Below are positions 8,351-64,000 of a stretch of DNA of 64,000 nt, in pieces; position 1 is the stretch's first letter; every line of letters begins with the position of its first letter. Source of the DNA: Armatimonadota bacterium (GTDB lineage Bacteria; Armatimonadota; HRBIN16); NCBI GenBank assembly GCA_026003195.1, contig BPGU01000005.1, positions 129,851 to 193,850 on the forward strand, written 5' to 3'. The notes beneath the pieces are model-generated. The model searched no databases and was not told the origin of the DNA. It saw nothing but the letters and a program-made list of their open reading frames with translations. Both the position numbers and the translations under genes were made by a program.

Positions 8351-8740
8351 ATGCTATCCGGTTCCATCAAGAGGCAGATAGGTCAGTCCGTTCAGAACAC
8401 CTGCACTTCTGTGGCGGCGGAGGTGTTCGGCGATCCCATTCGCATGCCGGACGGCACCTATCAGGTGGTGGTGGAGATGATAGGTGGCGGTTACGGCGGT
8501 CGTTCCACGCTGGTGGCGGTGTACACGGACCAGCAGACGGGGGTGACCGGTGCGAGTTTAAAGAGCGGCGATCTGGTGCTCGTCTCGTTTGACGAGAAGG
8601 GGAGCGCCTCGCCCCGTATCACCAGCGTCATCTCCAGATACACCGCTTTCAGCAACCAGAGCATCCGCAGTCGCCCTGCGGTGTCCGATGCAACTCGTGC
8701 GGACACCACATCGATGATGGTGGTAGGTGGTGCGCCATGA
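8351..8740 (+). CDS. hypothetical protein (129 aa)
   Basis: ATG at 8351 with AAGGAG 8 nt upstream. The ORF-track alternative start is at 8324. Confidence 0.5.
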   Translation: MLSGSIKRQIGQSVQNTCTSVAAEVFGDPIRMPDGTYQVVVEMIGGGYGGRSTLVAVYTDQQTGVTGASLKSGDLVLVSFDEKGSASPRITSVISRYTAFSNQSIRSRPAVSDATRADTTSMMVVGGAP

Positions 8741-8782
8741 GTGCCGGAGGTGGTGCGCCATGAGTGCCGGAGGTGTTATGCC

Positions 8783-46399: not shown

Positions 46400-48022
46400 A
46401 TGGCTTACATTTACACGGAATCGGATTATCCTCCGCTATATCAATCCATGCGCAGACTGGTGGAGTCGGATGTCAGGCTCAGCGCATGGAACTACCTGTT
46501 CCCGGCATCTCAGGCTGATGTGCTGGCGCATGCCCGTACCAGTCCGCAGATGGTGACGGCTCTTGCCTATGCGCCCAGTCATCCCAATATCCTGAACCAT
46601 CCGTTAACTTATACCACCGTCGTGGAGCGTGGTAGACGCAGGAACGCCTCGTCTCAGACCGCCCGGCTGTTCTCCGATATACTGGACACCCTGTACAGAG
46701 AGATGGGCGAGCGTCCCATATACAGTCTGTACGCCAGCCCCACCATCCCGTCACCGGCGTTTGCGCATCAGGACGACCCTGCGTTCCGACCGGGATTGAG
46801 ACCAGGCTCTGTAGAGAGCATCATCCGGCAGATGACGCCTGGGCATGTGTTCCTTGCCAGAGTGCCGTCTGACGAGTTGACGAATCCTGCACCGGCTGAA
46901 TCTGCAGAGGACCTGTCCAGAGTGCTCGGGGAATACGACGCACGTGAAGGCTTCCGGCGACTGGCGCTCCTGTATGAACGGTCGCCCGGTAAGAGCTCGC
47001 TGCTGTCCACTCTCTCCAGACAAACCGGCGCCGATGCTGATCAGATCGCCAGAGCGCTGGAGGCGAGCTCTGCTATCGGCACTGCACGCGATGCCAGGTC
47101 CATGATCCGCACGGTCGCCCATGAGTTCGCACATGCCAACATCCAGCCGGTGCCGCCCATTGCCACCTCGGCGCTGTTCAGGATGTTACGGGGCAAGACC
47201 AGTCCGACAGATGTTGCGGTTGCGGAGCTGATGCAGTCCCAGTATCTGGACGAAGCGCTATCTGATACATTCGCCGCAGCGGTCTCACTGGATCCTGAAG
47301 GCATCGCTCATTCCCGGTACGCGTTCGCCGCCGCATCACAGATATATGCAGCGGCACGCAGGAACAGGCAGGAGCTGAAGGGCTGGAAGTATGGAGACCC
47401 GTTCAAGCTGGTGGTCATGGATCCCAAACTGGTGGAGGATGTGGATTCCCCGCTTGGTAGACTGCTGAGGGACGAGTTGCGCAGGTATCCGCTGGACAAA
47501 ATCGCGGATGTGGACCAGATAGAGGACGAGAAGGGCGAGTTGAACATCGAGGCGTTGACCGGCGTTATCTCCCGAATCAGCGGTATCAACAGCACCGTCG
47601 CGCAGGAACTGTATCGCAAGCTGAGCGGGGGCACGCTGGACCTCAGTCGCTACGGTGGCGACGAGCGCCAGCTACGTCAGGTGATAGAGACCTGGGGCAG
47701 CAGACTCTGGAGCACCGCCTACATGATAGGCAAAGCCTCGCCGGAGCTGATAGGCAAGGAGATAGAGGTCACTCCGGAAGGCGTGTTCATGGACGGTGAG
47801 AAGCTGGACCTCGCTAAGACAGGTATCCCCGACCTGGACTATCTGTCCTTGACCGGCAGGGGCGAGATGCATCCGGAACAGCTGGAACGCGCCCATAACG
47901 CGCTGGAGATGTATCGTCGTGCCAAACGGGCGCTCCTGAGAGGCAAACGACTCGTTCTGCAGGCTGGTATGGCAGCCACCGAGATCGTGCAGTCGTGGAG
48001 GCGCGAGTTCGGCGCCATCTGA
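46400..48022 (+). CDS. HExxH zinc-metallopeptidase-like protein, tandem paralogue 1 (540 aa)
   Basis: HEFAH + downstream Glu. Shares GWKYGDP, IGKxxPELIGKEIxVTPEG and HPEQLER blocks with the next two genes. Confidence 0.65.
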   Translation: MAYIYTESDYPPLYQSMRRLVESDVRLSAWNYLFPASQADVLAHARTSPQMVTALAYAPSHPNILNHPLTYTTVVERGRRRNASSQTARLFSDILDTLYREMGERPIYSLYASPTIPSPAFAHQDDPAFRPGLRPGSVESIIRQMTPGHVFLARVPSDELTNPAPAESAEDLSRVLGEYDAREGFRRLALLYERSPGKSSLLSTLSRQTGADADQIARALEASSAIGTARDARSMIRTVAHEFAHANIQPVPPIATSALFRMLRGKTSPTDVAVAELMQSQYLDEALSDTFAAAVSLDPEGIAHSRYAFAAASQIYAAARRNRQELKGWKYGDPFKLVVMDPKLVEDVDSPLGRLLRDELRRYPLDKIADVDQIEDEKGELNIEALTGVISRISGINSTVAQELYRKLSGGTLDLSRYGGDERQLRQVIETWGSRLWSTAYMIGKASPELIGKEIEVTPEGVFMDGEKLDLAKTGIPDLDYLSLTGRGEMHPEQLERAHNALEMYRRAKRALLRGKRLVLQAGMAATEIVQSWRREFGAI

Positions 48023-48064
48023 TTGTTGCGCCATCTGATTGTTGCGCCATCTGATTGTCCACCG
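48020..48064 (+). repeat. 16-bp direct repeat x ~2.7 (cgccatctgattgttg) overlapping the stop of paralogue 1
   Basis: Read directly from the sequence. Confidence 0.7.
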
Positions 48065-49777: not shown

Positions 49778-51425
49778 GTTCATCCAGAACCTGCTCAAAC
49801 GCGCCGACCGGTTCCAGAGCCCTGCACAGGAGGTAATAGCCGACAGTCCCGCTCAGGAGATTCTTGAGCAGGATGTTCTTGCTACTGAGCAGGAGGTTCT
49901 TGCCGATAGCCCGGCACAGCAGGCGCTGGGCACGAGCTATGTACGGAGCTTACTGGCCGGTAACGCATTCCCCATCTACACGCAGGAGCATCTCAGGGAC
50001 TTTGAACAGCGATTCCTGTCCGCATGGAGCGATATCCAGAGCCCGGTGCGCATTCAGGAAGCGCTGGACAGGCTTCCGATGGAGTTGCTGGCTGCCACCA
50101 ACACCATCTGGGAGCCGGACGCATCCATGAGCACCGCCTATCGGGAAGGCGAGTGGAAGGTGAAGCGACCGCCCATAGGATTAAGATTGTATCAGGAAGC
50201 TTCAACCGAAGTGGACCGGATACTGGGCTATGAGAATAAGGTCAATCTGTACAGCTCGTTCCTGTCCGGTCCCTCTATGCGCGGACTGGACCCGCTTCAA
50301 CCGGACAGGACGGTTGAACCGTCAGGGCTGTTGAAGGAGACGATGCCCGCTACCAGACTGGTGTATCTGGATATGATGAACTCACCGTTTATAAGGGAGT
50401 ATATGGATGAGTACGAACGGGTCAGTCCGGAGCTCAAGCGGGTGATACAGGGCGTGCAGGACGTGGAGGTGGTGAACCGGGTGACGCCGTTCACATACCT
50501 GCACGAGTACACGCACGGCGTGATGTTCCCGCTATCCACGATAACCTACAGCAACCTGCAACGCCACCTGAGCGGCGAGTTAGGGATGACGGATATCGTC
50601 ACCAGATCGTATATGAACTACGCCATGATTCAGGAGGCGGTCGCCGATGCCATCGGAGCCGCACTGTCCGGCGACCTGGAAGGCGCATTGACCATGCGAT
50701 ATAGCGCCGAGATGGCAGTGCACGCCGGTGACGATGTGAAGCCCAGATACGGCGACCCTATCCGTCTGGAGGTAATAGACCCGGCACTGATAGAGGATAC
50801 CGAGAACAGTCCGCTCTGGCAGATGGTAAGGCAAGCCGCAAGCGATATCGAGCAGAGACGACCGAACAAGTTTATCGATGAACCGAACGTCATGAGGTAT
50901 TCCCTGGAACGCCGAGACCTGAGGGCTTTCACAACCGCCATGCAGAGTCTGGAACATATCACCAGCATGGTATACGATAAACTGATAAGCGCCGCGGAAT
51001 CCGGTAGTCTGGATAGACAACTCCGTGAGACCATCATGGGACAGGCTTCCAGAATCTGGATCTATCCCTACTTCATCGGTAAAGCCAGACCGGACCTCAT
51101 CGGTAAGGAGATAAACATCCTGCCCGAATCGATTGAGGTGGCAGAGACCGGTGAGAAGCTGAACCTTGCGGAGATACTGCCGGATATCGCACCGTTAGGA
51201 TTAATAGACGAATCCGTTGTGCATCCGGAACACCTGCGTCGTTCCTTCAAGCTGATCGAGTTATACGACCGTGCCAGGGAAAGACTGAGGGCGGAACACG
51301 CCATGCAGCAGGCTTCGGAAGCGGAGGTAGTGCACCACAGGAACTACGAGACCGCACCGCCTCCGGATACAGGAGAAGCGGTGATAGAGCGCTGGCGGGA
51401 ATGGATCAGGAGCATAGCACCTTGA
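49770..51425 (+). CDS. HExxH zinc-metallopeptidase-like protein, tandem paralogue 3 (551 aa)
   Basis: HEYTH. PRYGDP. IGKARPDLIGKEINILPES. Confidence 0.65.
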   Translation: MSKFIQNLLKRADRFQSPAQEVIADSPAQEILEQDVLATEQEVLADSPAQQALGTSYVRSLLAGNAFPIYTQEHLRDFEQRFLSAWSDIQSPVRIQEALDRLPMELLAATNTIWEPDASMSTAYREGEWKVKRPPIGLRLYQEASTEVDRILGYENKVNLYSSFLSGPSMRGLDPLQPDRTVEPSGLLKETMPATRLVYLDMMNSPFIREYMDEYERVSPELKRVIQGVQDVEVVNRVTPFTYLHEYTHGVMFPLSTITYSNLQRHLSGELGMTDIVTRSYMNYAMIQEAVADAIGAALSGDLEGALTMRYSAEMAVHAGDDVKPRYGDPIRLEVIDPALIEDTENSPLWQMVRQAASDIEQRRPNKFIDEPNVMRYSLERRDLRAFTTAMQSLEHITSMVYDKLISAAESGSLDRQLRETIMGQASRIWIYPYFIGKARPDLIGKEINILPESIEVAETGEKLNLAEILPDIAPLGLIDESVVHPEHLRRSFKLIELYDRARERLRAEHAMQQASEAEVVHHRNYETAPPPDTGEAVIERWREWIRSIAP

Positions 51426-51741
51426 TAAGGTCTACACGTTCGGAATAGTCCTCCGGATCCGTCTGTCGGTACAACTTCATCAGCTTCTCCGCCAGCTCCG
51501 GTAACCTGCCGATACTGGGCATCAATGGATGCTTCAATCCTTCGGCGATCTCGCCACCGGCAAGCCGCCAGGCGAGTATCTCCTCAGGTGTGCCTTCCAC
51601 AAGCACCAGATGCGGCATGGCGCCCACATCCAGCACGAAGTTGCCCATGTCCATGTTGCCAATTTGTAAATGCAGGGCGATCGCCTTCTCCGCCAACTGC
51701 GCCGTGGCGTAACTGCCGTCCTTCTTGTCCAGAAGCTTCAT
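51406..51741 (-). CDS. hypothetical protein (111 aa), downstream of the mini-array
   Basis: ATG at 51741. The longer ORF-track form would run into the CRISPR repeats. Confidence 0.4.
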   Translation of the reverse strand: MKLLDKKDGSYATAQLAEKAIALHLQIGNMDMGNFVLDVGAMPHLVLVEGTPEEILAWRLAGGEIAEGLKHPLMPSIGRLPELAEKLMKLYRQTDPEDYSERVDLIKVLCS

Positions 51742-51778
51742 GATATGTCCCTCCGTTGCGCCAGTTTCTATCCTGCTC

Positions 51779-52020
51779 ATTTCTATCCTACTCAGGTATG
51801 TACCGAACTCAGCACGATGCCAGAGTGTATGCATACGGTATCATCAGTTTCTATCCTACTCAGGTATGTACCGAACAGCCTATGGAGGCTGCACAGCTCG
51901 CCAGACAGTTCGCATACAGATCGTTTGCGAACCGTGCGCTCTGCGCCGTGTTGATCGCTATCGCCATATACAATATCACTCCAGTGCACAGTTTCTATCC
52001 CACTTAGGTATGTGCCCAAC
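51779..52020 (-). CRISPR. mini-array: 3 variant repeats (51779-51808, 51847-51876, 51991-52020) with a 38-nt and a 114-nt spacer
   Basis: Repeats atttctatcctactcaggtatgtaccgaac, gtttctatcctactcaggtatgtaccgaac and gtttctatcccacttaggtatgtgcccaac. The last one overlaps the final 5 codons of the RNA ligase gene. Confidence 0.6.
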
Positions 52021-53080
52021 CTGAGTTCTCCATCTCACGTACCACGATCTTCCTTATGGACCGGTTGAACTTATCGCCGGTATAGGAGACCGTCCAGCGC
52101 CATGGCGGTGGGATGTCCAGCACACGGGCTCTGCCCAGCCCGGCATAACGCTGAGCCTGTTCCGTTACCTGCCGTTCCAGACTCTCTATCCGTGCAATCA
52201 GCTCTTGCACATGAGGCAGATACACCAGGAACTCCTCCACCTCGGCGACGGTCGCCCTTAACGCTTCCAGTCCGCCCTCCAGATACGTCCTCAGCATCCG
52301 GTTCGTGGTCATACCACGAACGCTTGCCAGTCGCTTCAGATACTCCGGCGACTTCAACTTGACGAGCAGGTTACCGTAACCGTGAGTATACTGCACCACA
52401 ACGCCTTCCCAGTCCGCATGTTCCGCCATCTCCACGAGCTGCACAGCCTCGTCAATGCTATACACGGGATACTGCTGTGGTAGTCTGAGTGGAGGCTCTA
52501 AGTGACTGTAGAACTCTACCGCCGGTATCAACTCCAGCGTGCTGAGGTCTCTGAGATAGAGTATTACCAGCGCAGGCTGCGCCGGTGGAGTGCACATGCC
52601 GGGTTGCCACACCTCGTTGTGTAACAACTCGGCAACCATCGTGTAGCCTTCAGGAAGCTGTATGCATCCACCGGCGAGCTGGCTGGCGATGACGGCAGCT
52701 CTTGTCCAGATGCCGTGTCGTGAAGCGAACACGAGTTCACCTTCATGATGGAATACCTGTATCATCACACCGTCCGCCTTCTCACAGACGCAACGCACGG
52801 TCTTGTCCGCAAGATGAGCCGGCGACGTCTCATCATGCTCGTTCAAGTTGAAGAACTTGACAAGCGGTAGCGACACCAGATTGTTCTCCGAATCGATGAC
52901 CAGCCCACGACAGACTCTGAGCCATGGCGTCCACATACCACGATAGCTGGCTTTATCGGTATAGTTCAGCAAGGTGAGGTTGCCATGTGTACGCACATTC
53001 AGTATCGTGGGATCATAATCGCCAGACCGGACGATGTGGATGGCCTCATCTATCGCCCTGCGGATCTCCCGTACGGTCAT
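52004..53080 (-). CDS. RNA ligase, T4 Rnl1 family
   Basis: VCRGLVID...LVKFFNLNEHDE... mirrors T4 Rnl1 ECRGIMFE...MEKFFNLNENP. Motif I KADG with no Arg at +5. EGVVVQ (motif IV) and LVKLK (motif V). ATG 53080 with AGGAGG upstream. Confidence 0.7.
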   Translation of the reverse strand: MTVREIRRAIDEAIHIVRSGDYDPTILNVRTHGNLTLLNYTDKASYRGMWTPWLRVCRGLVIDSENNLVSLPLVKFFNLNEHDETSPAHLADKTVRCVCEKADGVMIQVFHHEGELVFASRHGIWTRAAVIASQLAGGCIQLPEGYTMVAELLHNEVWQPGMCTPPAQPALVILYLRDLSTLELIPAVEFYSHLEPPLRLPQQYPVYSIDEAVQLVEMAEHADWEGVVVQYTHGYGNLLVKLKSPEYLKRLASVRGMTTNRMLRTYLEGGLEALRATVAEVEEFLVYLPHVQELIARIESLERQVTEQAQRYAGLGRARVLDIPPPWRWTVSYTGDKFNRSIRKIVVREMENSGWAHT

Positions 53081-53091
53081 GAACGTGCCTC

Positions 53092-53544
53092 CTAACCGTT
53101 TGGTGGGGCTCTGTGCTCGTTCAACCAGATGCATGCTCTGGTTACACCATCGCCGAACAGATCTTCAGAGTAGATAACCTTATCGGAGTGATACCATAGC
53201 CACGGATGGTACAGGTTCTGGTATCCTGTCACCAGCACGGTGGTCTTGCCCCACAGGCGGGCATAGAGCAACTCCATGCTGGTGCCGATACTTGCCCGTG
53301 CCATGATGGCGATGATGGCATCCGACTGTTTGAGAAGGCTGAGGTCCGACTGCACCAGCTGCTTGCAGGCTTCCCTGAAGTTCATCTGTTCGAGCAGTCT
53401 TGGCCAGATCTCCGGGTTCATGAAGTCCATCGGCGAGATGGGTTCCAGCCCATGAGACCGAACAAGCTCCGCTACCTGCTTGAACATCTGCTGGGGATCA
53501 TAGTCTCTGTGGTTGGAGATGGGCATTCCGATATAGACACGCAT
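53092..53544 (-). CDS. nucleoside 2-deoxyribosyltransferase-like protein
   Basis: MRVYIGMPI N-terminus and SIGTSMELLYARLWGKTTVLV resemble the NDT/DNPH1 family (catalytic Glu in the G-T-S-x-E-L context). Confidence 0.5.
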   Translation of the reverse strand: MRVYIGMPISNHRDYDPQQMFKQVAELVRSHGLEPISPMDFMNPEIWPRLLEQMNFREACKQLVQSDLSLLKQSDAIIAIMARASIGTSMELLYARLWGKTTVLVTGYQNLYHPWLWYHSDKVIYSEDLFGDGVTRACIWLNEHRAPPNG

Positions 53545-54108
53545 TCAGGCCACCTCCGGATTCAGCTCGCCGTGTATGAGGTTCTTGAACCACTCATCGT
53601 CGATCTTGTGGAGATGCCTGCTGTTGTCTTTGAGAAACGCCCAGGCGCCTCCTTCGCGGAATACGTAGAGCTCATACCCGCCGACAGGTATCTTGAAGAA
53701 GTAGTCTACGCTCCTGTCCAGCGTGTTGGGGACCAGCTCGTATTCCAGACTCTCCAGAACCTGGATGATTCGTTGCAGTTGCTGTTCCGTAATGGTGAGC
53801 GTGCCGTATCGGTATATACGCCCGGAGATTTGCCGGATGATATCCTGCACGGCATCGATGGGAACAGAATACCATTTCCCACGATAGCAGAAGGAGTAGC
53901 GTTCTACTGCGACGACAGAGACCTCCTTATCCTTGATGATTTGCAGATATTTGCACCAGTCCAGTTCCTCCACCGTCTGCTCGATCTGGTAGTCTCTGAC
54001 GACGAGACCGCCGACTGTTTCCTTGTCCAACATGAACAGATCGTGTTTGTCCAGTAGTAGAGTCACAGTATCGCTGTCGGATTGGCACCGTATGGCGTAG
54101 AACTTCAT
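53545..54108 (-). CDS. hypothetical protein (187 aa)
   Basis: ORF with AGGAG SD. Confidence 0.55.
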   Translation of the reverse strand: MKFYAIRCQSDSDTVTLLLDKHDLFMLDKETVGGLVVRDYQIEQTVEELDWCKYLQIIKDKEVSVVAVERYSFCYRGKWYSVPIDAVQDIIRQISGRIYRYGTLTITEQQLQRIIQVLESLEYELVPNTLDRSVDYFFKIPVGGYELYVFREGGAWAFLKDNSRHLHKIDDEWFKNLIHGELNPEVA

Positions 54109-54149
54109 GGTTGGAACTCCTGATGAGATTGTTGTTCACTATAAACTCT

Positions 54150-54179
54150 GTTTCTATCCTACTAAGGTATGTACCTAAC
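54150..54179 (-). CRISPR. solitary CRISPR repeat unit (gtttctatcctactaaggtatgtacctaac)
   Basis: 28/30 identity to the array repeat. Sits in a 90-nt intergenic space. Confidence 0.75.
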
Positions 54180-54198
54180 CACTATAACTCTTGGCAGG

Positions 54199-55251
54199 TT
54201 ATATGGGGCAATTGTTGAGGTCTATATCGTATTCCAGCAGCATCACCTTATCGCCCATCATCAGGGACACCTGTGGCGTCAATCTGGGCAGCTGGTTCAT
54301 GAGAGAGGCGATATGCATGAGGTTACCACGTGCCAGCGGTCGCACGAAGCAGCTGTTCTTTATGGGATGCGGGAACAGCTCGCTGACGGCGCTTCTCATT
54401 GTCATGCCGGGCTCCACAATGATGTATCGCTGGTAGACACTAATCACGTCATGGGTTTGTACCAGCACGTTGTTGATACGTACCAGGACGACGTTGAAGC
54501 GGATATCGTATCCAGATTTCAGGGCGAACCGAAGGGCGGCGAGCCGCACCATGTAATGAAGGAGATCTCTGGCAAGATGCTCTATACTCCTGTAACCGTA
54601 TGTGTCGTTGATCTCGCTTCTGCAGTTCAGGAGTTGCTCCTGTCTCACGAGCATGATGCGGTAGTGTCCTGCCGCTTCAGACTGCACATAGTTCGTGGAT
54701 AACAGATTGGCAAGAACCAATACGTCCTGGAACAGCTTATCCAGCGGTAAAGACTGCACAAAGTCCAGGAACGAAGCGGTGTACCGGATATGCTGTTCGG
54801 AAGCCTGTTCGCATGCCCTTATCCACTCCTGCCGTAGATAGTCAAAGAATGCGGATGATTCGTTGCACATCTGGCTTATCATCCTGCCCTGTCGTTCCTG
54901 GAGGGAATCATCGTTCTCAAGATGCTTCATCATCTGCATCAGCCAGTTGCGGGACGCTATTCTGGCACCGGGCAGGTTGTGACTGTGTTCGTTGATAGTT
55001 AGTTCCACGTCTCCTATGCGTAGCAGGATGGTGCCTGGAGTATCACTGTCTGCTGGCTGATAACGTAGAGACACACCATGGGGCAGCGTCCATCCGTAGG
55101 ACTCTGCAGGATAGACTATCCGCACGGGCCAGACGTCGGGGGGTCGAATGAACGGCTCCATGAAGAGCTCTCTGGTCTTGTTACGAACGAAGCTGATGAA
55201 CTTGAGTGGGGTGTTGACCATGCCCGGTTCTCCTCCATACACTAAGATCAT
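54199..55251 (-). CDS. unknown protein (350 aa), paralogue of the ORF at 63036..>64000
   Basis: Shared block FFDYLRQEWIRACEQASEQHIRYTASFLDFVQSL vs FFRRFRREWKDACEQALWEDATRYTAPFIKFISSL. Confidence 0.6.
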   Translation of the reverse strand: MILVYGGEPGMVNTPLKFISFVRNKTRELFMEPFIRPPDVWPVRIVYPAESYGWTLPHGVSLRYQPADSDTPGTILLRIGDVELTINEHSHNLPGARIASRNWLMQMMKHLENDDSLQERQGRMISQMCNESSAFFDYLRQEWIRACEQASEQHIRYTASFLDFVQSLPLDKLFQDVLVLANLLSTNYVQSEAAGHYRIMLVRQEQLLNCRSEINDTYGYRSIEHLARDLLHYMVRLAALRFALKSGYDIRFNVVLVRINNVLVQTHDVISVYQRYIIVEPGMTMRSAVSELFPHPIKNSCFVRPLARGNLMHIASLMNQLPRLTPQVSLMMGDKVMLLEYDIDLNNCPI

Positions 55252-55265
55252 AGTCTGTTCTGTAA

Positions 55266-55295
55266 GTTTCTATCCTACTTAGGTATGTATCTAAC
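55266..55295 (-). CRISPR. solitary CRISPR repeat unit (gtttctatcctacttaggtatgtatctaac) between cas3 and the 350-aa gene
   Basis: Lies 4 nt after the cas3 stop and 14 nt before the next start codon. Confidence 0.75.
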
Positions 55296-55299
55296 GTCA

Positions 55300-57366
55300 C
55301 TATACAATCAACGCTGAATTGCCTTCCCCCTTCTCCGGCTTGACTAGTCCGTACTCCTCCGAGTAGTCTGCATCAATAGTATACGAACCGCTTCCTATGT
55401 ACGATATCCTGTTCCCATACCACTGCTTCCATTCGAATGGAACAGGAACCAGTAGCTCCCTAGCTTGCAAATACCTGCCCTCGTCTGTCAGCTGCATGAA
55501 CTCATCGAGATAGCAAGCAGGAACGACGTCTATCGTACCTGCTATCTTTTGCTCGATGTCTTCCATTGTAGTGGTTATGTATGCTTTCATGCTCCTCACG
55601 TGATTCGAGAACACATCAAGCTTGCGTAGATATCTACGGTCCTGTAGCATGTTCTGATAGACATGGTTGACCCAATCCCGCTGGACGTGCCAGCTGATAG
55701 CCTGTTCCGATATTGCATTCAGCGTGTTCTTGAGGTACTCTTCATCGTAGACGTACTCCAGCTTGCCAGCATCATACGTCGTCGCTACATGCACATCGAC
55801 TATGCCGTGCTCACCGCGACGGTTGACTCTACCGAACCGCTGAAGCAGATCGTCAACAGGAGCTACTTCGGTATAGCATGTGTCATAGCTGATGTCCAGT
55901 GATACCTCCACAACTTGAGTGGCGATGAGTAGCTGAGGTTTGTGGTGCAGGATGTCGTTCTCTATCCGTGACCTATCCCTAATCATGAAGCGGGAGTGCA
56001 ATAGCCGTCTGGATGGGATATCGGAGAACGTCTGGTACATGGACACAGCTTGATCTACTCTGTTACAGACCACCAGCACGGACTTGCCCAGTTCCAGATC
56101 TCGGCGGATGAGAGGAATACAATCCTCCAGCGTCTGGTCCAAACGCTTCAGGTAGTGCCTGTCCGGCAACGCCACATCGGCAACAATGTGCTTCACGTTA
56201 TGTAGACGGCGTTTCAACTCGTCTACCAGTGGTTCAGGCAACGTGGCTGACATCACCATTACCTTGCCACCAAGCTGCTGAATCACATCAATCAATACCG
56301 TAATCATTGCCAGCGTACTGCTGTCGTATGCATGTATCTCATCGAACACGAAGCAGGCATCCTTCATCTGTACGATGCCTACTTCGAACCGCTTGATGCC
56401 GATCAGGTAATTCAATAGCTGATACGGTGTGGTTATCTTGACCGGCTTGTGCACCAGCCTGTTCAGGTTCGCATCCTGCTTAGCTTGCTGTGATGCCAAA
56501 TCCTCGTTACCTTCATCCATATACCTCCGGAATGCATATAGCATGTCACGCCCATGCACAACACCGACTTCATCCCCCTGGAACACACCTCGTTGAACAA
56601 ACCGCTCCTGCATTGCTTCAATAGACGATTGGTAAGGTAACACATAGAACAGCCGTCGGTTGCCGTTCCGGTTACGGTCATACCAGAGAAGGGCTGCCTC
56701 GGTCTTACCACTGCCGGTTGGTGCCTCCAGAATGAGGTTTCCTTCTGTCTCAGCTGCTTGTTGCTGGAAGCCGCGCGGTGAGATGTTGAGGTTGACCTTC
56801 TTGACCTGAACGGGCTGTTTCAGCCCGGCACTGGCGGCATGGTCTGCTGCGATCAGATAACCACGTAGCAGAACGTGATCCGTGTAGATACCTTCGTCTA
56901 TACCGTAGCGGAGGTACTTAGTATGCTCCACTAGCTTACGCACAATATCCTCTGGAACCGGTACAGGAAGCTCCCCGGCCTTATCAAGCACTATCCCTAT
57001 ATTGCGGAGGTGTGCAGAGATACTTCCCTCTGGCTCGCGGTTGTGTGGATGTTCTATATCTCGATGATGCGTAAGGATGGCTCCGAATACTGCAGGATCA
57101 AACTCCTCCTGCATGAGGTATATCAACGCTGATAGTACTTCGTGTCGGTAGTGCCACTTGAAACCACTATCCTCAAGCTGCCTTTGGAATCCGCTTGCTT
57201 GCTTACCGAGATCATGATAGACCGCCGCCAGATGAGCTCTCTCATCATCCGTTAAGTGCTTGATGTAGTTCAATACATCCAGCGTATGCTGCTTGAGTGT
57301 TGTGCCATCGGACTTAGCGAGGTAGCAATCAAGAGAATCGAACAGGGAAGAGTACCTTGCCTTCAT
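55300..57366 (-). CDS. cas3: Cas3 (HD nuclease fused to SF2 helicase)
   Basis: HD motifs HTLDV...AAVYHDLGK...FQ...IAADHAAS. Helicase motif I APTGSGKTEAAL, motif II DEIH, motif III SATLP. Confidence 0.85.
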   Translation of the reverse strand: MKARYSSLFDSLDCYLAKSDGTTLKQHTLDVLNYIKHLTDDERAHLAAVYHDLGKQASGFQRQLEDSGFKWHYRHEVLSALIYLMQEEFDPAVFGAILTHHRDIEHPHNREPEGSISAHLRNIGIVLDKAGELPVPVPEDIVRKLVEHTKYLRYGIDEGIYTDHVLLRGYLIAADHAASAGLKQPVQVKKVNLNISPRGFQQQAAETEGNLILEAPTGSGKTEAALLWYDRNRNGNRRLFYVLPYQSSIEAMQERFVQRGVFQGDEVGVVHGRDMLYAFRRYMDEGNEDLASQQAKQDANLNRLVHKPVKITTPYQLLNYLIGIKRFEVGIVQMKDACFVFDEIHAYDSSTLAMITVLIDVIQQLGGKVMVMSATLPEPLVDELKRRLHNVKHIVADVALPDRHYLKRLDQTLEDCIPLIRRDLELGKSVLVVCNRVDQAVSMYQTFSDIPSRRLLHSRFMIRDRSRIENDILHHKPQLLIATQVVEVSLDISYDTCYTEVAPVDDLLQRFGRVNRRGEHGIVDVHVATTYDAGKLEYVYDEEYLKNTLNAISEQAISWHVQRDWVNHVYQNMLQDRRYLRKLDVFSNHVRSMKAYITTTMEDIEQKIAGTIDVVPACYLDEFMQLTDEGRYLQARELLVPVPFEWKQWYGNRISYIGSGSYTIDADYSEEYGLVKPEKGEGNSALIV

Positions 57367-57955
57367 GCACTAAACCTCTCGCTTGCTGAACAGGTTGTTG
57401 CTTGCAATCGATAACAGTGAAGCTGCGTATGCTTGTTGGGTGACGCGGCTCGGTTCTGGTGAAGTCTATCGGTAGTGCGTAGATGGCGCCGAATAGTTCC
57501 AGCCGCTTCGCTTCGTCGCTATCTACTAATACACCTGATACCTCACCTTCTCCGTCGATGAGTTCTACAGTCTCTACGAGTTCGACAGTAGCGAGATCCT
57601 GGCTTCTGCCAAGTGTGAGGATACCATGGGGATTCTTCAATGCATACTCAAACTCTGGATCGATGTACAGATGCAGTGTTGTATTGTATAGAAACTCCCT
57701 GCTAACGATGTCTGTGCCCTTCTCGATTGCTTTGGTCTTGTAGATCTTCTCCACATCAATTCCACGCTCAGCGTATTCGAAACGATAGGCAAGGAACGAT
57801 ATCTCATCTGTGTCAACCCAGCGCCCCGCTGCGTTTCTGAGTAAGCCGATGATGGTGGAAGGTGGTGGCACAGACAACGTGGGCTGAGGTTTCATGAAGT
57901 AGTGTACTCTGAAGCTTGCCGTTTCAGATCTGATAACAGCATGTACAACTTGCAT
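57329..57955 (-). CDS. cas5: Cas5
   Basis: Hallmark N-terminal PTLSVPPPSTIIGLLRNAAG. GGAGG SD. Start abuts the degenerate end of the array. Confidence 0.7.
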   Translation of the reverse strand: MQVVHAVIRSETASFRVHYFMKPQPTLSVPPPSTIIGLLRNAAGRWVDTDEISFLAYRFEYAERGIDVEKIYKTKAIEKGTDIVSREFLYNTTLHLYIDPEFEYALKNPHGILTLGRSQDLATVELVETVELIDGEGEVSGVLVDSDEAKRLELFGAIYALPIDFTRTEPRHPTSIRSFTVIDCKQQPVQQARGLVHEGKVLFPVRFS

Positions 57956-57969
57956 TGCTGTAGAACCTC

Positions 57970-59416
57970 CGTTTCTATCGTTTCTATTCTAGCTTCCATC
58001 CTACTCACTTCTATCCTACTAAGGTATGTACCCAACTGGCTTAGGTATGTACCGAACTCAGCTCGTAGTCCTGAACCTCAAAGGTCACACCTTGAGTTTC
58101 TATCCTACTTATTTCTATCCTACTTAGGTATGTACCTGACCATTGCTGTATCTGGCGATGGCTGTCGGGGACTGGATTCGTTTCTATCCTACTTAGGTAT
58201 GTACCTGACTGATCAATCTGTAGACAACAGTGACTTCAACTTCACTGGTTTCTATCCTACTTAGGTATGTACCTGACGTGAGCACTCATGCCTGTTTCTA
58301 CCTTAACCTGGAGCTGTTTCTATCCTACTTAGGTATGTAACTGACTTGAAATCGCAATGTCACGATGATAACGATGCCTCCAGGTTTCTATCCTACTTAG
58401 GTATGTACCTGACCGCATTGGGCTGGTTAAGAACAGTAGCACGTTCTCCGTTTCTATCCTACTTAGGTATGTACCTGACTACCCGAACGTGCCTGCATGG
58501 TTGAGAGTGCCAGCGTTTCTATCCTACTTAGGTATGTACCTGACTGGCAAGGGTGCTGTTCGTTGGTGCTTCCCCCAACGACGTTTCTATCCTACTTAGG
58601 TATGTACCTGACACGATGAAGTAGACTTCGTCCCCTGCCCGCTCTGCAAGTTTCTATCCTACTTAGGTATGTACCTGACAACATCAGCGTGCGCCCAGTG
58701 CGCCGCGAGTTCGTGCGTTTCTATCCTACTTAGGTATGTACCTGACCCTTCATGATGACAAACAACTAACGAAACCAAAAGGGTTTCTATCCTACTTAGG
58801 TATGTACCTGACCGCGCCGGAAGAAGAGACGATAGTGTTTCGTGATGCAGTTTCTATCCTACTTAGGTATGTACCTGACACCTCCGAAGCCAGACTACTT
58901 CCGTGAGGTATCGGCGTTTCTATCCTACTTAGGTATGTACCTGACTGGCACGACGCTGACCAGGGTGAAGGGACAGTCGTTCGTTTCTATCCTACTTAGG
59001 TATGTACCTGACCTTTGCTTCACCCGTTAGTACGTCAACAATCCTGTACCGCGTTTCTATCCTACTTAGGTATGTACCTGACATAGCACGCGTCCTCAAG
59101 ACCACACCGGAATGGCTCGCGTTTCTATCCTACTTAGGTATGTACCTGACGAGTGTTTACGCTTCCTGTATGACCGCTTCCCGAATGGTTTCTATCCTAC
59201 TTAGGTATGTACCTGACCCGTACGGGAAAGAATACATACCTCTCTACGAAGATTGTTTCTATCCTACTTAGGTATGTACCTGACTGGTGTTCTCTGCCGA
59301 ACGCGCCATGATATAGCCGTGTTTCTATCCTACTTAGGTATGTACCTGACCACTCCTTTGTCAGACTTCACGTTTTCCGCGAATAGGTTTCTATCCTACT
59401 TAGGTATGTACCTGAC
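57970..59416 (-). CRISPR. CRISPR array: 20 full 30-nt repeats (58110-59416) plus a degenerate trailer (57970-58109), 19 spacers of 35-40 nt
   Basis: Consensus on plus strand GTTTCTATCCTACTTAGGTATGTACCTGAC. Transcribed sense GTCAGGTACATACCTAAGTAGGATAGAAAC (AUAGAAAC 5' tag). Degenerate repeats lie at the cas5-proximal (trailer) end. Confidence 0.9.
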
Positions 59417-59610
59417 CAAACCGACATGTCACTTGACTGATTAGTCATCAATCAAGTGACGCTAAACGTGTGTTTGAGTATGAGATAACTAATCACTGTG
59501 TTGTCTAAACCACAAACACAGTGCTAAATGAGTCGTCTACCTCCTTCGTGGAGATACCAAACCGGAGGTAGACGACTCTTGATGACAGCAGTCTACTCTT
59601 CACTAAGTTC
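59417..59610 (-). promoter_or_regulatory. putative CRISPR leader (AT-richer, two inverted repeats)
   Basis: Lies between the newest repeat and a solitary repeat. Palindromes gtcacttgactgattagtcatcaatcaagtgac and gagtcgtctacctcc...ggaggtagacgactc. Confidence 0.5.
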
Positions 59611-59640
59611 ATTTCTATCCTACTTAGGTATGTACCAAAC
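59611..59640 (-). CRISPR. solitary repeat unit (atttctatcctacttaggtatgtaccaaac) between the cas7 stop and the leader
   Basis: Lies 14 nt after the cas7 stop. Confidence 0.7.
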
Positions 59641-59654
59641 AGAGAGACAGCAGC

Positions 59655-60767
59655 CTACTCTTCATCGATCTCCCGCTGATCTGCCAGCTCCTGCTGTTCG
59701 TTCTGCTCCTTGCCCTGCTTCCTGCCCTTAGCCTTCTTAGCAGCCGCCGCGGCTTCTATGGACTGACGTAGAGATTCAGCATCCACTGCACGCTCTTCCT
59801 GCTGCAAGTCATCGTAGAACTTGTCTACTAAGTTTGCAACAGCAGTAACTAGTTCCTCCATCGTGCTGTGCCAGCGTACGAACTCTAGCTGTTTGACAGC
59901 CTGCTCGTTGATAACAACACCAGGCACAGCACTGATGTGAAGCTCTTCCAGCAGGTTGCGATCACGCAGGTACTTCAGTCGCTCTATGTCGATAATGATG
60001 CTATCGTCGCGCTTCTTGAAGATGCCCTGCAGTATTGCGTTGCCATGCTCGACCGCTGTCAGCACCAGCACCTGAGGTGTGACGTCTGTGTTGTTCCTGG
60101 CGAGATTCGCACCGCCCTCCAGCAACGTCAGCGCCTTCAGCAGATCCCTCACTCTGCGCTTGCGCTCGTCCCGACTCAATGCGAACTTATCATGCGTAAC
60201 CTGCACTAACTTGTTCGCATGATTCCGTAACGTCTCAGCGTCCAGCTCACCGCCAGCACGTCCCTCGACGAGCGGAGCCTCGAACACGCCGACACGCTCC
60301 AGATCCAGCGAGAAGTTCGCAGCCATCCACGCAGAGTATACTTCACGCTGAAATACAGCGTTGTCGCCGGCAACCGACAGGACACCGAAGTCAGACACTG
60401 GTCGAGCATCGTGGATAGCAGACAACGCAGAACAGTGAAGTGGCGACGTGCGCTTGATAGCGTTGTTGCCCTTCTCAGCACGCATGTAACCGAACAGGTC
60501 GTCATCCTCGTGCTCGACTGGATCACATGCAGCGTAGCCATGCGCACCGGCACCCTCCGCCTTCACCATCTCATAAGTGGTCGGATTCCAGCCGAAGTGG
60601 TTGTACAGCACATTACGCCACCAGTGACGCCATGCTTGACCGGATGCGTAAGGGCGATTGCCCACCTTCTTGACAAGGGAGATCTGTCCGATATCCGCTT
60701 GCTCAGTCTTATTGCAGTTCAATGCAGCAACATCTGCATAGATAGCAAATGTTCCGGTAAGTTTCAT
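59655..60767 (-). CDS. cas7: Cas7 (Csa2/Csh2-like backbone subunit)
   Basis: RPYASGQAWRHWWR corresponds to the VPVISGEALAHAYQ signature of Csa2-family Cas7. ATGA overlap with the upstream gene. Confidence 0.65.
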   Translation of the reverse strand: MKLTGTFAIYADVAALNCNKTEQADIGQISLVKKVGNRPYASGQAWRHWWRNVLYNHFGWNPTTYEMVKAEGAGAHGYAACDPVEHEDDDLFGYMRAEKGNNAIKRTSPLHCSALSAIHDARPVSDFGVLSVAGDNAVFQREVYSAWMAANFSLDLERVGVFEAPLVEGRAGGELDAETLRNHANKLVQVTHDKFALSRDERKRRVRDLLKALTLLEGGANLARNNTDVTPQVLVLTAVEHGNAILQGIFKKRDDSIIIDIERLKYLRDRNLLEELHISAVPGVVINEQAVKQLEFVRWHSTMEELVTAVANLVDKFYDDLQQEERAVDAESLRQSIEAAAAAKKAKGRKQGKEQNEQQELADQREIDEE

Positions 60768-62404
60768 TCCTCTACCTCCTGATCTTCAGTGTAGGTATCT
60801 TCCTCCTCTTCATCCTGGTCCTCGTCATCTACTTGAATGCCAAGCTCGCGTAGCTTGCTGGCGATGAGGATCTCCAGCACCTGCGCAGCTGCCCTGGCTC
60901 TCATGCGATTCTGCTTCTCTGTGTTAGCATCCAGCATGAAGTCTATAGGACACAGCAGAACGAAATCCTGCCAGCTGAGCTTCCCGATACGAGCGAGATA
61001 TGCATACAGCGATCGAATCGCCTTCATGTCGCCAGACCATGCAGCACTGCGTAGCCTCTTATGTAGCGTAGCAGCACGGTCCATCGATACGAAGCTATCA
61101 GCGATACGCTCCATCAGCAAGATTGCCTGATCCTGAGACTGTACCTGTTGCTGTACATTGTCGTCGAACTGTAAGCCAGTGTGTCGACAACGAACGTAGT
61201 CGTATACAGCAACAGAGAGGTATTGAAGCACTCTCGTCAGGTCATGATACAGGAACAGGGGAGCGAGCAGAGACGCATCCACCTTACCGTCTCTTGCCAG
61301 CCTCGTCAAGAACCGTATAGTCTTGTCCCTATCCCTGCTGTTCACCAGATTCAGCATCTCACGCTTCGCCGATTCCAGCACATCGTCGCTGTTTGATACA
61401 GACTGGTAGATATGATCGCCAGCAGCGATGGCAACCTGTGTCAACGCTGAAATCAATCCATTGTCCATTCCACGTACCTCCGTCAGGTATCTGCGTACTG
61501 CATACCATCTATCGCCCAGTTCAGGCTGGTACTTGCCCTGTAAGTAGAGGTCAAGCTGCGTGTCTCTACCACGCTGCTTGCACCGATCCTTCAATGTGTT
61601 GATGAAGTGGAAACTTGACAGCCCCATGTGATACTCTACGGTGTCAAGCTTCGTTATGTGGTCTATTACACGGTTCGGTATCACCATGTAGCTGATTTCA
61701 CCTTCACCCCGCTGCGAGCTGTTGATCAGCCATATCGTTACAGACTCGCCACGATAGGAGTTCTGTGCTACGATATCCTTGACAATATCCGCTCTCGCCT
61801 GCCCAGGAGTATCCATCCTGAACTTAGCTTGCTCTCCATTGGTGGAAGTTGCTACCTTCTGGTAGTTCTCTCTGTAGATCCTGTCTACTATCGCCTTGCC
61901 AACCAGTTCGTTCTGTATATGCGGTATCACCATATGCACGTTGTTGATGTGGTCGGCAGCGATGAAGGCGGAGAGTGCAGCCAGCTCACATAACCCGCAG
62001 ACTGGCATACCGTCCATCAGTGACGGATAGAAGTTGAACTCGCCATGCAGGAACGGTAGCACATGACGCTTCGCCGATACAATAGCCTCTTCTGGAACAC
62101 GCTTGCCACAGATATGACAGATGGAACTTCCAGAGGTCAGAGCCAGCTTGGCACGATGGATAAGCCGGTCAATGGCATCATTCCATTCTGGTTGTCCATA
62201 GGCGCCTTGAGTGAACACGCAGTTGGGAGTGAAGAAGCGCAACTTCTTACGGAATAGCTCGAAGCTCTCCTGGGCAAGCATATCCCTCAGCGGGCCTGCC
62301 ATATTGTCGATAGCCTGATCATCTATCTGGTTGCTACGGGAGATCTTCAGTATAGCGGTGAGCCCGTAGTCTACGACGAAGTGACCTGTCCACGGTACAG
62401 CCAT
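60764..62404 (-). CDS. Cas8-like large subunit (546 aa) with a four-Cys zinc finger and an acidic C-terminal tail
   Basis: Position immediately upstream of cas7. CHICGK...CGLCEL. C-terminal DEDQDEEEEDTYTEDQEVEE. Family assignment (Cas8a vs Cas8b) is uncertain. Confidence 0.5.
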   Translation of the reverse strand: MAVPWTGHFVVDYGLTAILKISRSNQIDDQAIDNMAGPLRDMLAQESFELFRKKLRFFTPNCVFTQGAYGQPEWNDAIDRLIHRAKLALTSGSSICHICGKRVPEEAIVSAKRHVLPFLHGEFNFYPSLMDGMPVCGLCELAALSAFIAADHINNVHMVIPHIQNELVGKAIVDRIYRENYQKVATSTNGEQAKFRMDTPGQARADIVKDIVAQNSYRGESVTIWLINSSQRGEGEISYMVIPNRVIDHITKLDTVEYHMGLSSFHFINTLKDRCKQRGRDTQLDLYLQGKYQPELGDRWYAVRRYLTEVRGMDNGLISALTQVAIAAGDHIYQSVSNSDDVLESAKREMLNLVNSRDRDKTIRFLTRLARDGKVDASLLAPLFLYHDLTRVLQYLSVAVYDYVRCRHTGLQFDDNVQQQVQSQDQAILLMERIADSFVSMDRAATLHKRLRSAAWSGDMKAIRSLYAYLARIGKLSWQDFVLLCPIDFMLDANTEKQNRMRARAAAQVLEILIASKLRELGIQVDDEDQDEEEEDTYTEDQEVEE

Positions 62405-62490
62405 GAGGTTCCTCCTGTTATTTCTGTGCTGCTCTGTTATGTTCCTGATGCTCCAGAGGACGAACCTTTGAGCTCGCCCTCTCGAGTCAT

Positions 62491-62688
62491 CTACACCTGG
62501 CTCACGCAGTAATCCTCCTCTATATCATCTGCCATCTCAGCGGTAACGTTGGTCAGCTCCCAGCGGGTACCGCACCGTGGGCACTCGCCGTCGTAGGTGT
62601 TCTGATACTGACCACCTACCAGCTCCAGCTGAACCTGAGAACCGCAGGGGCAGGTAATGATGATGTACTGGGGATTGGTGTTGTACAT
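62491..62688 (-). CDS. zinc-ribbon protein (65 aa)
   Basis: CPCGS...CPRCG. AAGGAG SD. Confidence 0.5.
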   Translation of the reverse strand: MYNTNPQYIIITCPCGSQVQLELVGGQYQNTYDGECPRCGTRWELTNVTAEMADDIEEDYCVSQV

Positions 62689-62705
62689 GGCTTCTTAACT
62701 CCTTC

Positions 62706-62767
62706 TTGTTCCCATCCTGCTTGTTCCCATCCTGCTTGTTTCTATCCTGCTCTGGTATGTTGCTAAC
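62706..62767 (-). CRISPR. degenerate solitary repeat (62738-62767, gtttctatcctgctctggtatgttgctaac) embedded in a 15-bp x3 tandem repeat (cttgttcccatcctg)
   Basis: Read directly. The conserved GTTTCTATCC end is retained. Confidence 0.5.
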
Positions 62768-62996
62768 GTGTGTTCTCGTCAATGTTAGCTTCCTGCCTCT
62801 GGATGGTCTCCCTGACACGCTCCCACGCTTCGTCCAGCTCGTCTCTGGTTAACTGCAGTCGCCACTGCTCCATATCGATAAGGTGCTGGTAAGCGAACAG
62901 GAGCATGTCCTCCAGATCCAGGGATTGCTCTTGCTGTTTCATGAACAGCACATCCTGTAACATGAACTCAACTGCTTCCTGTACCCGTTCGTCCAT
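62763..62996 (-). CDS. hypothetical acidic protein (77 aa)
   Basis: GGAGG SD 7 nt upstream. Confidence 0.5.
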   Translation of the reverse strand: MDERVQEAVEFMLQDVLFMKQQEQSLDLEDMLLFAYQHLIDMEQWRLQLTRDELDEAWERVRETIQRQEANIDENTR

Positions 62997-63035
62997 GTCG
63001 TATACCTCCAGATAATGTATTTGTGCACGCCAGGT

Positions 63036-64000
63036 CTAACATGATAGCACTTCCAAGAGTGCCTCAACACCTTTGTCACCACGTACGCTATACTCCAGCA
63101 CAAGCGCTTGCATGTCCTGACCGGTCTCCACCTTCTGCCAGGTAACCTCATGCACAATGGGCTGGGTGTTCAGTATGCGGTCTATTAATGTAGCCAGATA
63201 GGGCAGACTGCCCTTGCAAAGCCTCTCCAGAGCGTCGTCCAATCTGAAGGTTCTAATAAGCCTGCGTGCTTCCGCTTCCAGATTGGCATCTGGAGCCAGA
63301 ACCCTGTACGAGCTTGCAGAGACGTCGTAATATGCATGGATCAGTAAGTTGTCTATGATGACCAGATTCCTGGCGTCCTTCAGATCCATGCCTCTGCGTA
63401 GATACTGCTCCATGGATGCAAGCGATATCAGATCTGCAGCCAAACGACGACCATACAGGAGCAGATCGTCGTACCTATCGTATAGCGTATTCCTGAACTC
63501 ACTTTTGGCTATCCGGGATTGATAGTCCAGCGCATCTCTCAGAGTCTCGATAACGTGTCTGGAGTAATATGTATCCCTCATGCCGTACATGAGCTCTGCC
63601 CTTACTACAGCGTTGGTGAACCGATCCTTGATAGACAGGGAGCTGATGAACTTGATGAAAGGAGCCGTGTATCTCGTAGCGTCCTCCCAAAGAGCCTGTT
63701 CACAGGCATCTTTCCATTCCCGACGGAACCGCCTGAAGAACGTGCAGGCATCCCTGTGAGCCCGTTCCACTTCGTTACCGTACAGGTAGTGGTACATTCG
63801 AGAGCCGTCCGGGTTACTCAGAATGGACTCCCTGAGCATCCCTTCTCCTGCGCGGATGAAGGAATCGCTGAAGGCTGCCCCATCATCGTATTCAGATACA
63901 GCAACTTCCATATCGCCTGCGCGTACAACAAACGTACCCTGCTCATCGATATGCCTGCCCGGTTTGTACAGGAGAGTGGTGCCAGGAGTGAGTTCTACCT
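63036..64000 (-). CDS. unknown protein, paralogue of 54199..55251; 5'-truncated, the ORF stays open to the window end
   Basis: The frame is open upstream of Met63911 through position 64000. Shared EW(K/I)(D/R)ACEQA...RYTA.F..F..SL block with the 350-aa protein. Confidence 0.55.
   Translation of the reverse strand, partial: VELTPGTTLLYKPGRHIDEQGTFVVRAGDMEVAVSEYDDGAAFSDSFIRAGEGMLRESILSNPDGSRMYHYLYGNEVERAHRDACTFFRRFRREWKDACEQALWEDATRYTAPFIKFISSLSIKDRFTNAVVRAELMYGMRDTYYSRHVIETLRDALDYQSRIAKSEFRNTLYDRYDDLLLYGRRLAADLISLASMEQYLRRGMDLKDARNLVIIDNLLIHAYYDVSASSYRVLAPDANLEAEARRLIRTFRLDDALERLCKGSLPYLATLIDRILNTQPIVHEVTWQKVETGQDMQALVLEYSVRGDKGVEALLEVLSC

Follow-up and report, generated by a model that had tools for sequence, protein, structure and literature searches.

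Passages of Al-Shayeb et al. (2020; PMC7162821) describe huge phages with CRISPR systems that lack Cas1, Cas2, and Cas4, including one type I variant without Cas6, and with spacers directed against other phages. Here, a related locus was analyzed in a 64-kb window, that is, the whole stretch of DNA from position 129,851 to 193,850 of contig BPGU01000005.1; all coordinates refer to this window unless another contig is named. The locus encodes the type I-B effectors Cas8b, Cas7, Cas5, and Cas3 on the minus strand, with a 20-repeat array inside the effector operon and additional single copies of the repeat between the genes. We read it as an accessory I-B interference module of 7.8 kb that is carried by a jumbo phage and used against a competitor virus, with processing and adaptation supplied in trans, and we put the probability of this reading at about 0.72.

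The locus shares with the systems in PMC7162821 a location on contigs of more than 200 kb with phage genes, a type I composition without Cas6, no detected Cas1, Cas2, or Cas4, and spacers against an unrelated virus. However, the type I variant described in those passages resembles I-C and has a Cas5d-like protein and a helicase other than Cas3, whereas the present locus is I-B with a complete Cas3. The same passages contain no mention of repeat-punctuated operons.

Compared with type I-B systems (Cst or Tneap-Hmari, consisting of Cas8b1/Cst1, Cas7/Cst2-DevR, Cas5t, and Cas3), the locus has all four effectors, a 30-nucleotide (nt) repeat, spacers of 35–40 nt, and a 5' protospacer-adjacent motif (PAM). 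It differs in that no cas6b and no cas4-cas1-cas2 were detected, that cas7 and cas5 enclose the array, placing it within the effector operon and not beside it, and that repeat copies stand between the genes.

The minus-strand order was cas8, cas7, leader, array, cas5, and cas3. The initial annotation had proposed this compact type I arrangement with its leader and 20 repeats, and hidden Markov model (HMM) searches supported all four effector calls: the four proteins matched type I-B models, most of them above the curated cutoffs. The Cst1-like large subunit gene cas8b (60764–62404, minus strand, 546 amino acids (aa)) matched PADLOC Cas8b at E=5e-10 and TIGR01908 at 27.2 bits against a cutoff of 19.4, and its product carries two CxxC motifs. 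The I-B cas7 gene (Cst2/DevR, 59655–60767, minus strand, 370 aa) reached 134.7 bits with TIGR02585 (cutoff 72.75) and E=1.7e-41 with PADLOC Cas7b. The cas5 gene (Cas5b/Cas5t, 57329–57955, minus strand, 208 aa) scored 98.0 bits with TIGR01895 (cutoff 96.7) and E=5.7e-41 with PADLOC Cas5b. The cas3 gene (55300–57366, minus strand, 688 aa) encodes an HD nuclease fused to a superfamily 2 helicase; it matched PADLOC Cas3b at E=4e-171 as well as TIGR01587 and TIGR01596 above their cutoffs, and the motifs HDLGK, APTGSGKT, and DEIH were legible in its sequence.

Judged by these profile matches, the subtype is I-B (Cst/Tneap) and not I-A. The earlier labelling of Cas7 as Csa2, with an I-A-like affinity, had to be dropped, as TIGR02583 gave only 25.6 bits against a cutoff of 212.6. 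Membership in I-A is further contradicted by the single HD-helicase fusion of Cas3 and by the absence of a Csa5 match. Sequence searches of the PDB with Cas5, Cas7, and Cas8 gave no match, and no Cas7 relatives were found in IMG/VR with single-sequence or alignment queries.

The array (58111–59416, minus strand) consists of 20 repeats of 30 nt and 19 spacers of 35–40 nt. In the RNA sense, the repeat reads GTCAGGTACATACCTAAGTAGGATAGAAAC and ends in GGATAGAAAC. Between the array and a solitary repeat behind cas7 (R3, see below) lies a leader of 194 nt (59417–59610, minus strand), which begins with a 49-nt hairpin (59578–59530). The 15-bp stems of this hairpin were identical in L001 (4421–4469), a distant relative with only 39% Cas7 identity, while the loop and the remaining leader differed. 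At the other end, the trailer (57971–58110, minus strand) contains a 15-nt unit derived from the repeat tail (58096–58110), a half repeat, the degenerate repeat R4 (58007–58036), and three short repeat-tail units (57971–58006). It leads straight into the ribosome-binding site (RBS) of cas5, which agrees with the initial annotation on the array between cas7 and cas5 and on the degenerate trailer abutting the RBS. No Rfam family was matched, and promoter and terminator scans gave matches at or below shuffle expectation.

The targets of the array were sought in IMG/VR by exact searches with the first 24–25 nt of five window spacers. Four of the five gave matches, every one of them on a single 35.7-kb viral contig, IMGVR_UViG_3300014796_000053. 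All window spacers were then re-aligned to 17.5 kb of this contig, and spacers 2, 3, 4, 5, 6, and 8 (6 of 19) matched over their full length with 0 mismatches (36–40 of 36–40 nt), on both strands. One protospacer lies inside the large terminase gene of the target virus, with a tail gene nearby. Blastn and tblastx comparisons between the target virus and the window showed no other similarity, and no decoy repeats were present in the 17.5 kb seen.

The 5' flanks of the six protospacers were CCG, CCA, CCG, CCG, CCA, and GCT. Five CC flanks out of six are far from chance at a C frequency of roughly 0.29, and the side of the flank agrees with the direction of transcription inferred from the genes. 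Use against competitors, which had been suggested from the gene content, is thus backed by six perfect spacers against one unrelated virus and a 5'-CCR flank in five cases. The CCR PAM resembles the CCW PAM of the Clostridioides I-B system.

Identical Cas3 proteins were found on three other assemblies, namely L009 (JAEDZT010001593.1, a 218,776-bp contig), L010 (a 91,847-bp Joint Genome Institute (JGI) contig), and L011 (a short Logan contig). Behind cas3, L009 carries the solitary repeat R5, a 38-nt spacer, and a perfect repeat, with the ATG of an RNA ligase gene 24 nt further on. The spacer of this mini-array matches the start of a 187-aa gene in the sister genomes, at 38/38 positions in L010 and 36/38 in the window (54082–54045), and the flank is CCA. 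The targeted gene is absent from L009, the carrier of the spacer. With this case included, six of seven protospacers have a conserved 5'-CC(A/G) PAM.

No spacer was common to the arrays of the window, L009, and L010, despite flanks that are 98–100% identical, and neither spacer 1 of the window nor one L010 spacer had an exact match in IMG/VR. From these sequence comparisons, the array looks active, with rapid spacer turnover, a competing virus as its main target, and sister strains as a further target in at least one genome.

Models of Cas6, Cas1, Cas2, and Cas4 had no match among the 10 locus proteins or among 49 further open reading frames (ORFs) from the rest of the window, from 3.8 kb past the window end as seen in L009, and from L010 (59 proteins in total). 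The absence of cas6 and adaptation genes holds for these three stretches, and within them the earlier observation that the locus has no cas1, cas2, cas4, or cas6 was upheld. The cellular relatives L134 and L135 (Cas7 identity 26–28%) have ordinary I-B loci with cas6, cas1, cas2, cas4, and a WYL regulator. As cellular relatives keep these genes nearby, the phage version appears to be a stripped-down derivative.

Repeat searches of the GTDB representative genomes and of IMG/VR gave no match. Paired repeat tails (GGATAGAAAC twice) detected many arrays in GTDB genomes, none closer than 21/30 to the phage repeat among the matches listed. Five matches in JGI metagenomes (L004–L008) were rejected as unrelated: they represent a conserved element of about 70 nt that contains 19 bases of the repeat core and is not a CRISPR array.

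The source contig of the window, which encodes a protein identical to the Cas7 of the locus, is 202,060 bp long and belongs to the KatS3mg series (KatS3mg023), in a bin labelled Armatimonadota. Outside the CRISPR locus, the window encodes a Baseplate_J protein, a Gp80-like fibre, an amidase, RecU, Toprim primase domains, and a glycosyltransferase. In a 2351-aa ORF (1269–8324), residues 1270–2099 match a PHROG family annotated as endolysin, and the product is probably a giant virion-associated lytic protein. The large subunit gene of ribonucleotide reductase (41286–44087) is split by a segment matching terminase and homing-type profiles, which is consistent with an intein. No tRNA, housekeeping, or cellular gene was seen in the 64 kb. 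The phage-like character of the genome, already recognized in the initial annotation, was therefore confirmed, and the window fits a jumbo phage of about 200–220 kb, free or as an extrachromosomal prophage, from hot-spring metagenomes and binned with Armatimonadota. Among 50,697 records of public phage genomes, no match was found to the locus by megablast or to the array by blastn.

Two paralogous genes, A and B, border the CRISPR block on its left and right sides. In L012 ("bacterium HR16"), a more distant relative with 64% identity in paralog B and a common upstream gene order, the paralog A orthologue is followed after a gap of 13 nt by the paralog B orthologue and then by the 187-aa gene, and neither cas genes nor repeats intervene. 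The block from a 77-aa gene to cas3 (63035–55252, 7.8 kb) is missing there. Since L012 is otherwise syntenic, the CRISPR module can be regarded as an accessory insertion between two tandem paralogs.

The window was also searched with the repeat at up to nine mismatches. Nine solitary copies, R1–R9, were found in or at the edge of intergenic gaps, all in the sense orientation on the minus strand, and none lay outside 51.7–62.8 kb in the 64 kb. Together with the 15-nt units, they occupy almost all gaps between genes from 62767 to 51764, for the most part shortly before an RBS. The initial annotation had described the gene order correctly and had overlooked these copies throughout the operon. R1 (62738–62767, 6 mismatches) overlaps the stop codon of the 77-aa ORF and is followed by a tandem pair of 15-nt copies that derive from the 3' end of the repeat (AAGCAGGATGGGAAC, 62708–62737) and then by the RBS and ATG of a zinc-ribbon gene. 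R2 (62420–62449, 9 mismatches) lies 15 nt upstream of the cas8 ATG. R3 (59611–59640, 3 mismatches) begins 14 nt past the cas7 stop codon and is flanked by an 18-nt direct duplication. R4 is the degenerate copy in the trailer before cas5. R5 (55266–55295, 2 mismatches) begins 4 nt past the cas3 stop codon. R6 (54150–54179, 2 mismatches) stands between paralog B and the 187-aa gene and is flanked by a 12/13-nt duplication (AGAGTTATAGTG / AGAGTTTATAGTG). R7 (51991–52020, 4 mismatches) overlaps the stop codon of the ligase gene. Finally, R8 (51847–51876), a 38-nt spacer, R9 (51779–51808), and one 15-nt unit form a mini-array (51764–51876) directly upstream of a 111-aa gene.

Several of these repeats are followed by 1–3 tandem copies of the last 12–15 nt of the repeat and then by an RBS and ATG. 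The ends of the repeats or units lie 14–44 nt upstream of the start codons of the zinc-ribbon, cas8, cas5, paralog B, 187-aa, and 111-aa genes. The 15-nt motif RAGYAGGATRGRAAC (at most one mismatch) was expected 0.08 times and occurred 33 times, exclusively on the minus strand and within 51764–62752. One copy with one mismatch (AAGCAGGATGCGAAC) lies inside the cas3 coding sequence (56467–56481) and may be a chance match.

The mismatches were unevenly distributed along the repeat. In the eight solitary copies other than R2, 17 of 29 mismatches fell at positions 1–7, five at position 16, and four at positions 29–30. The core, positions 8–28, held 8 of the 29 against about 20 expected and was near-invariant apart from position 16, a statistic that counts the copies as independent though they are related by descent. 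All eight solitary copies have T at position 3, where the array has C. This shared T marks the solitary copies as an older lineage.

Comparable layouts were present in distant relatives. L001, L002, and L003 are short contigs with contiguous cas8-cas7-cas5 genes and Cas7 proteins that are 39–42% identical to that of the window. L001 has a zinc-ribbon gene upstream of cas8, as in the window, a repeat-like element and a 14-nt unit directly before cas8, and an array after cas5, behind a leader. In L002 and L003, the contig breaks off in the first repeat behind cas5. Judged by adjacent run accessions, L139 belongs to the sequencing series of L003; it begins with the L002/L003 repeat type and continues with cas3. 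In L137, eight repeats form an array that is followed by a single 15-nt unit and by cas3, and neither cas6 nor cas1 comes behind cas3. Protein identity of L001 and L137 to the window is about 40–47%. These layouts indicate that an embedded array and repeat-derived elements before cas genes are traits of a wider clade, in which the exact position of the array varies.

At a closer distance, near-identical siblings (L009 and L010) differ by gene cassettes that are bounded by repeats. L009 is without paralog B, the 187-aa gene, and the deoxyribosyltransferase gene. In L010, a three-repeat array is followed 16 nt on by the ATG of a 1094-aa D5-type primase and then by a 127-aa gene (L010 1733–5717); after these genes, first a chimeric and then a perfect repeat lead to the trailer and cas5-cas3. 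No counterpart of the primase exists in the window, and neither cas8 nor cas7 was found in the 18.6 kb of L010 available. Furthermore, a perfect repeat truncates paralog B in L010, where the 187-aa and transferase genes are also fused to each other. A 198-nt segment with a spacer-like stretch, R8, the spacer, and part of R9 occurs in the window and is absent from both siblings.

Several variant-specific junctions fall exactly at the 3' end of a complete repeat, with the other end of the rearrangement at an arbitrary place, so they are not explained by simple repeat-by-repeat recombination. R4 and R5 were identical across four independent assemblies and are therefore not assembly artefacts. R6 is missing at the same junction in L012, and R3 at the cas7 junction in L009. 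As both are flanked by duplications and missing in relatives, repeats must have been inserted at new positions between genes, and some of these positions lie beyond the cas block.

In the proposed mechanism, Cas8b, Cas7, and Cas5 would form Cascade on CRISPR RNAs (crRNAs) from the operon-internal array, and Cas3, with its HD nuclease and helicase, would degrade DNA with a matching protospacer and a 5'-CCR flank. The main target eliminated in this way would be the co-infecting unrelated 35.7-kb virus, and in the sibling L009 one spacer would be directed at a variable gene of its own sister strains. Cutting of the precursor crRNA and spacer uptake would be supplied in trans, by a CRISPR system of the host or by an unseen part of the phage genome.

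For the solitary repeats, we tentatively favor, at somewhat under even odds, a role as RNA-processing punctuation, with rearrangement as a by-product or a second use. This proposal draws on sequence features: the uniform sense orientation, the conserved core and handle, the regular placement before RBSs, and the recurrence in distant relatives. The repeat-specific RNase that makes the crRNAs would also cut the intergenic repeats and the 15-nt units. The cut is predicted 8 nt from the repeat 3' end, giving 5' ends at repeat position 23 (AUAGAAAC). A long transcript of 12 kb would then be cut up into crRNAs and individual mRNAs, with the 8-nt handle, a short leader, and an RBS at the start of each mRNA, and the repeats would serve as boundaries where gene cassettes are gained and lost. 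A broader version is speculative and quite unlikely. It would treat the repeat as general operon punctuation and cassette boundary at once, with genes in "spacer" positions of a 12-kb transcript that one RNase dices, and cassettes (the primase, paralog B, and the ligase block) swapped at repeat-spacer boundaries. This would amount to an integron-like gene capture, possibly via the spacer-integration machinery.

A serious rival, which we consider rather unlikely, is that array decay, slipped recombination, and template switching in a phage region prone to recombination left the solitary repeats and the 15-nt units behind as neutral debris, which is kept only because it lies between genes. Several junctions are indeed imprecise, with a complete repeat fused to mid-repeat or arbitrary sequence, two repeats have flanking short duplications that are typical of replication errors, the repeat sets vary between the siblings, and the repeat has no stable fold. 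However, debris would not be expected to keep positions 8–28 and the 8-nt handle while positions 1–7 drift, to be sense-oriented in every copy, or to stand at a regular short distance before start codons. The same layout before cas8 and cas3 in relatives with about 40–47% protein identity also argues against it, and for these reasons RNA-processing punctuation is preferred.

It is highly unlikely that the solitary repeats are crRNA-like regulators of the CreR/CreA kind, which would repress cas or cargo promoters via Cascade, or decoys of the Racr (RNA anti-CRISPR) type for host Cas proteins. Type I loci often have standalone repeats and mini-arrays close to cas8, and such elements can repress cas promoters (10.1101/2023.03.03.530964; 10.1101/2023.03.10.532045), and solitary phage repeats can serve as anti-CRISPR RNAs (PMC10651486). 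R2 directly before cas8 and the R8-spacer-R9 mini-array would suit such roles. However, when the R8-R9 spacer and the 36 nt that follow each solitary repeat were compared with the 64 kb, only chance 11–12-mers of complementarity were found. In addition, most copies are single and not paired, the repeats reach non-cas cargo genes, and decoys would poison the Cascade of the phage itself. That the locus belongs to a bacterial chromosome, as a prophage or defence island that protects an Armatimonadota cell and is not a free-phage weapon, is scarcely probable. In its favor, both long contigs are binned as Armatimonadota, the assembly paper notes that phage-like contigs found in genome bins may be extrachromosomal prophages (PMC9671151), and many of the nearest cellular Cas3 relatives come from Armatimonadota or Fervidibacter. 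Against it, virion, lysis, and replication genes were seen in the 64 kb and cellular genes were not, cas6 and adaptation genes were not detected, unlike in the cellular relatives, a related phage contig is syntenic without the block, and the module would be phage-borne even if the element is a prophage.

Several points weigh against the reading of a phage-borne interference module with repeat punctuation. One of six protospacers (GCT) has no CC flank. The cas6 or adaptation genes could sit elsewhere on the 202-kb contig, of which 64 kb was covered, and no host genome with the phage repeat was found in scans that were not exhaustive. No significant fold was found for the repeat RNA (z about 0), and with the lack of an Rfam match, Cas6 recognition cannot be argued from structure. 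The conservation statistic for the repeat core overstates the independence of the copies. Several rearrangement junctions do not coincide with repeats on both sides, and L010 could contain assembly errors. The L009 array (8191–9285) is a noisy consensus, in which many repeats contain indels and the spacers are of low complexity. It resembles the consensus of a population whose arrays are mixed, and its spacers were therefore not used.

The block and its flanks contain further genes, all on the minus strand. Paralog A, at the left border, was known from the initial annotation as a 291-aa ORF at the window edge (63036–64000). The ORF is present and is only the C-terminal part, 291 codons, of a 364-aa gene that is complete in L009 (3682–4776). 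Its sole Pfam signal was a sub-threshold, weak PIN match. Paralog B, at the right border, is a 350-aa ORF (54199–55251) with a likely start at 55221 (340 aa), and its AlphaFold model is mostly helical, with a pLDDT confidence score of 43.8. The two paralogs are 26% identical. Their family (340–364 aa, no database family) is present as three tandem copies in L012 (7835–11038). The idea that either is a hidden Cas6 was rejected for lack of support, given no family match, no PDB match, and the low-confidence, mostly helical model of paralog B.

At the left end of the block, the 77-aa ORF (62763–62996), also called as a gene in L009, has no family match, and the zinc-ribbon protein (62491–62688, 65 aa) has two CxxC motifs read from its sequence. 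Behind cas3 and paralog B follow the 187-aa gene (53545–54108) and a nucleoside 2-deoxyribosyltransferase-like gene (53092–53544, 150 aa; PF05014 at E=2.9e-8). An Rnl1-type RNA ligase gene (52004–53134) comes next, with PF09511 at E=1.5e-12 and a likely start at 53080, which gives the 358 aa called in L009 and L010. The 111-aa gene (51406–51741) is the last of the co-directional string. The RNA ligase and the deoxyribosyltransferase-like gene downstream of cas3 may be counter-defence cargo. Outside the locus, a perfect 16-nt tandem repeat (GCGCCATCTGATTGTT, 2.9 copies, 48012–48058) covers the stop codon of the gene at 46400–48022 and the gap to the next plus-strand gene.

As a phage-borne case, the locus is clean and has identifiable targets, with six perfect spacers against one rival virus and a readable PAM. 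No crRNA-processing enzyme was detected in it, which raises the question of who cuts the RNA. If the repeats are cleavage sites, the locus would be a natural example of CRISPR repeats organizing operon expression, including that of non-CRISPR cargo, and would imply that genes can reside in arrays. Spacer acquisition would be linked to gene capture if integrase activity produced the cassette junctions at repeat ends. In engineered operons, synthetic Cas6/Csy4 cleavage sites are used to insulate genes, and the logic is the one proposed here, in which a cut in the repeat between cistrons yields mRNAs with defined ends. To our knowledge, no natural operon built on repeat cleavage between cistrons has been described. 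A literature search for genes embedded in arrays or for repeats between cas genes retrieved nothing relevant; it relied on crude phrase matching with incomplete coverage and is weak evidence of novelty.

Among described elements, standalone repeats, mini-arrays, and CreR/CreTA (10.1101/2023.03.03.530964; 10.1101/2023.03.10.532045) are similar in their degenerate repeats within a cas locus, of which one lies before cas8 here and two form a mini-array. The present locus differs from them in having nine copies and tail units that extend across the operon into non-cas cargo, mostly as single copies, and in that no promoter complementarity was found in the 64 kb. Virus-borne mini-arrays in conflicts between related viruses, as cited in passages of 10.1101/2023.03.03.530964, resemble the L009 spacer against a sister-genome gene with the right PAM, whereas the phage described here also brings effector genes and a full array against an unrelated virus. 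In RNA anti-CRISPRs (Racr, PMC10651486), a solitary viral repeat mimics the repeat of the host; solitary repeats are present here, and no host array with the phage repeat was found among the matches listed. An interference-only phage system is already known, and the new element is the repeat-punctuated operon with cassettes in "spacer" positions.

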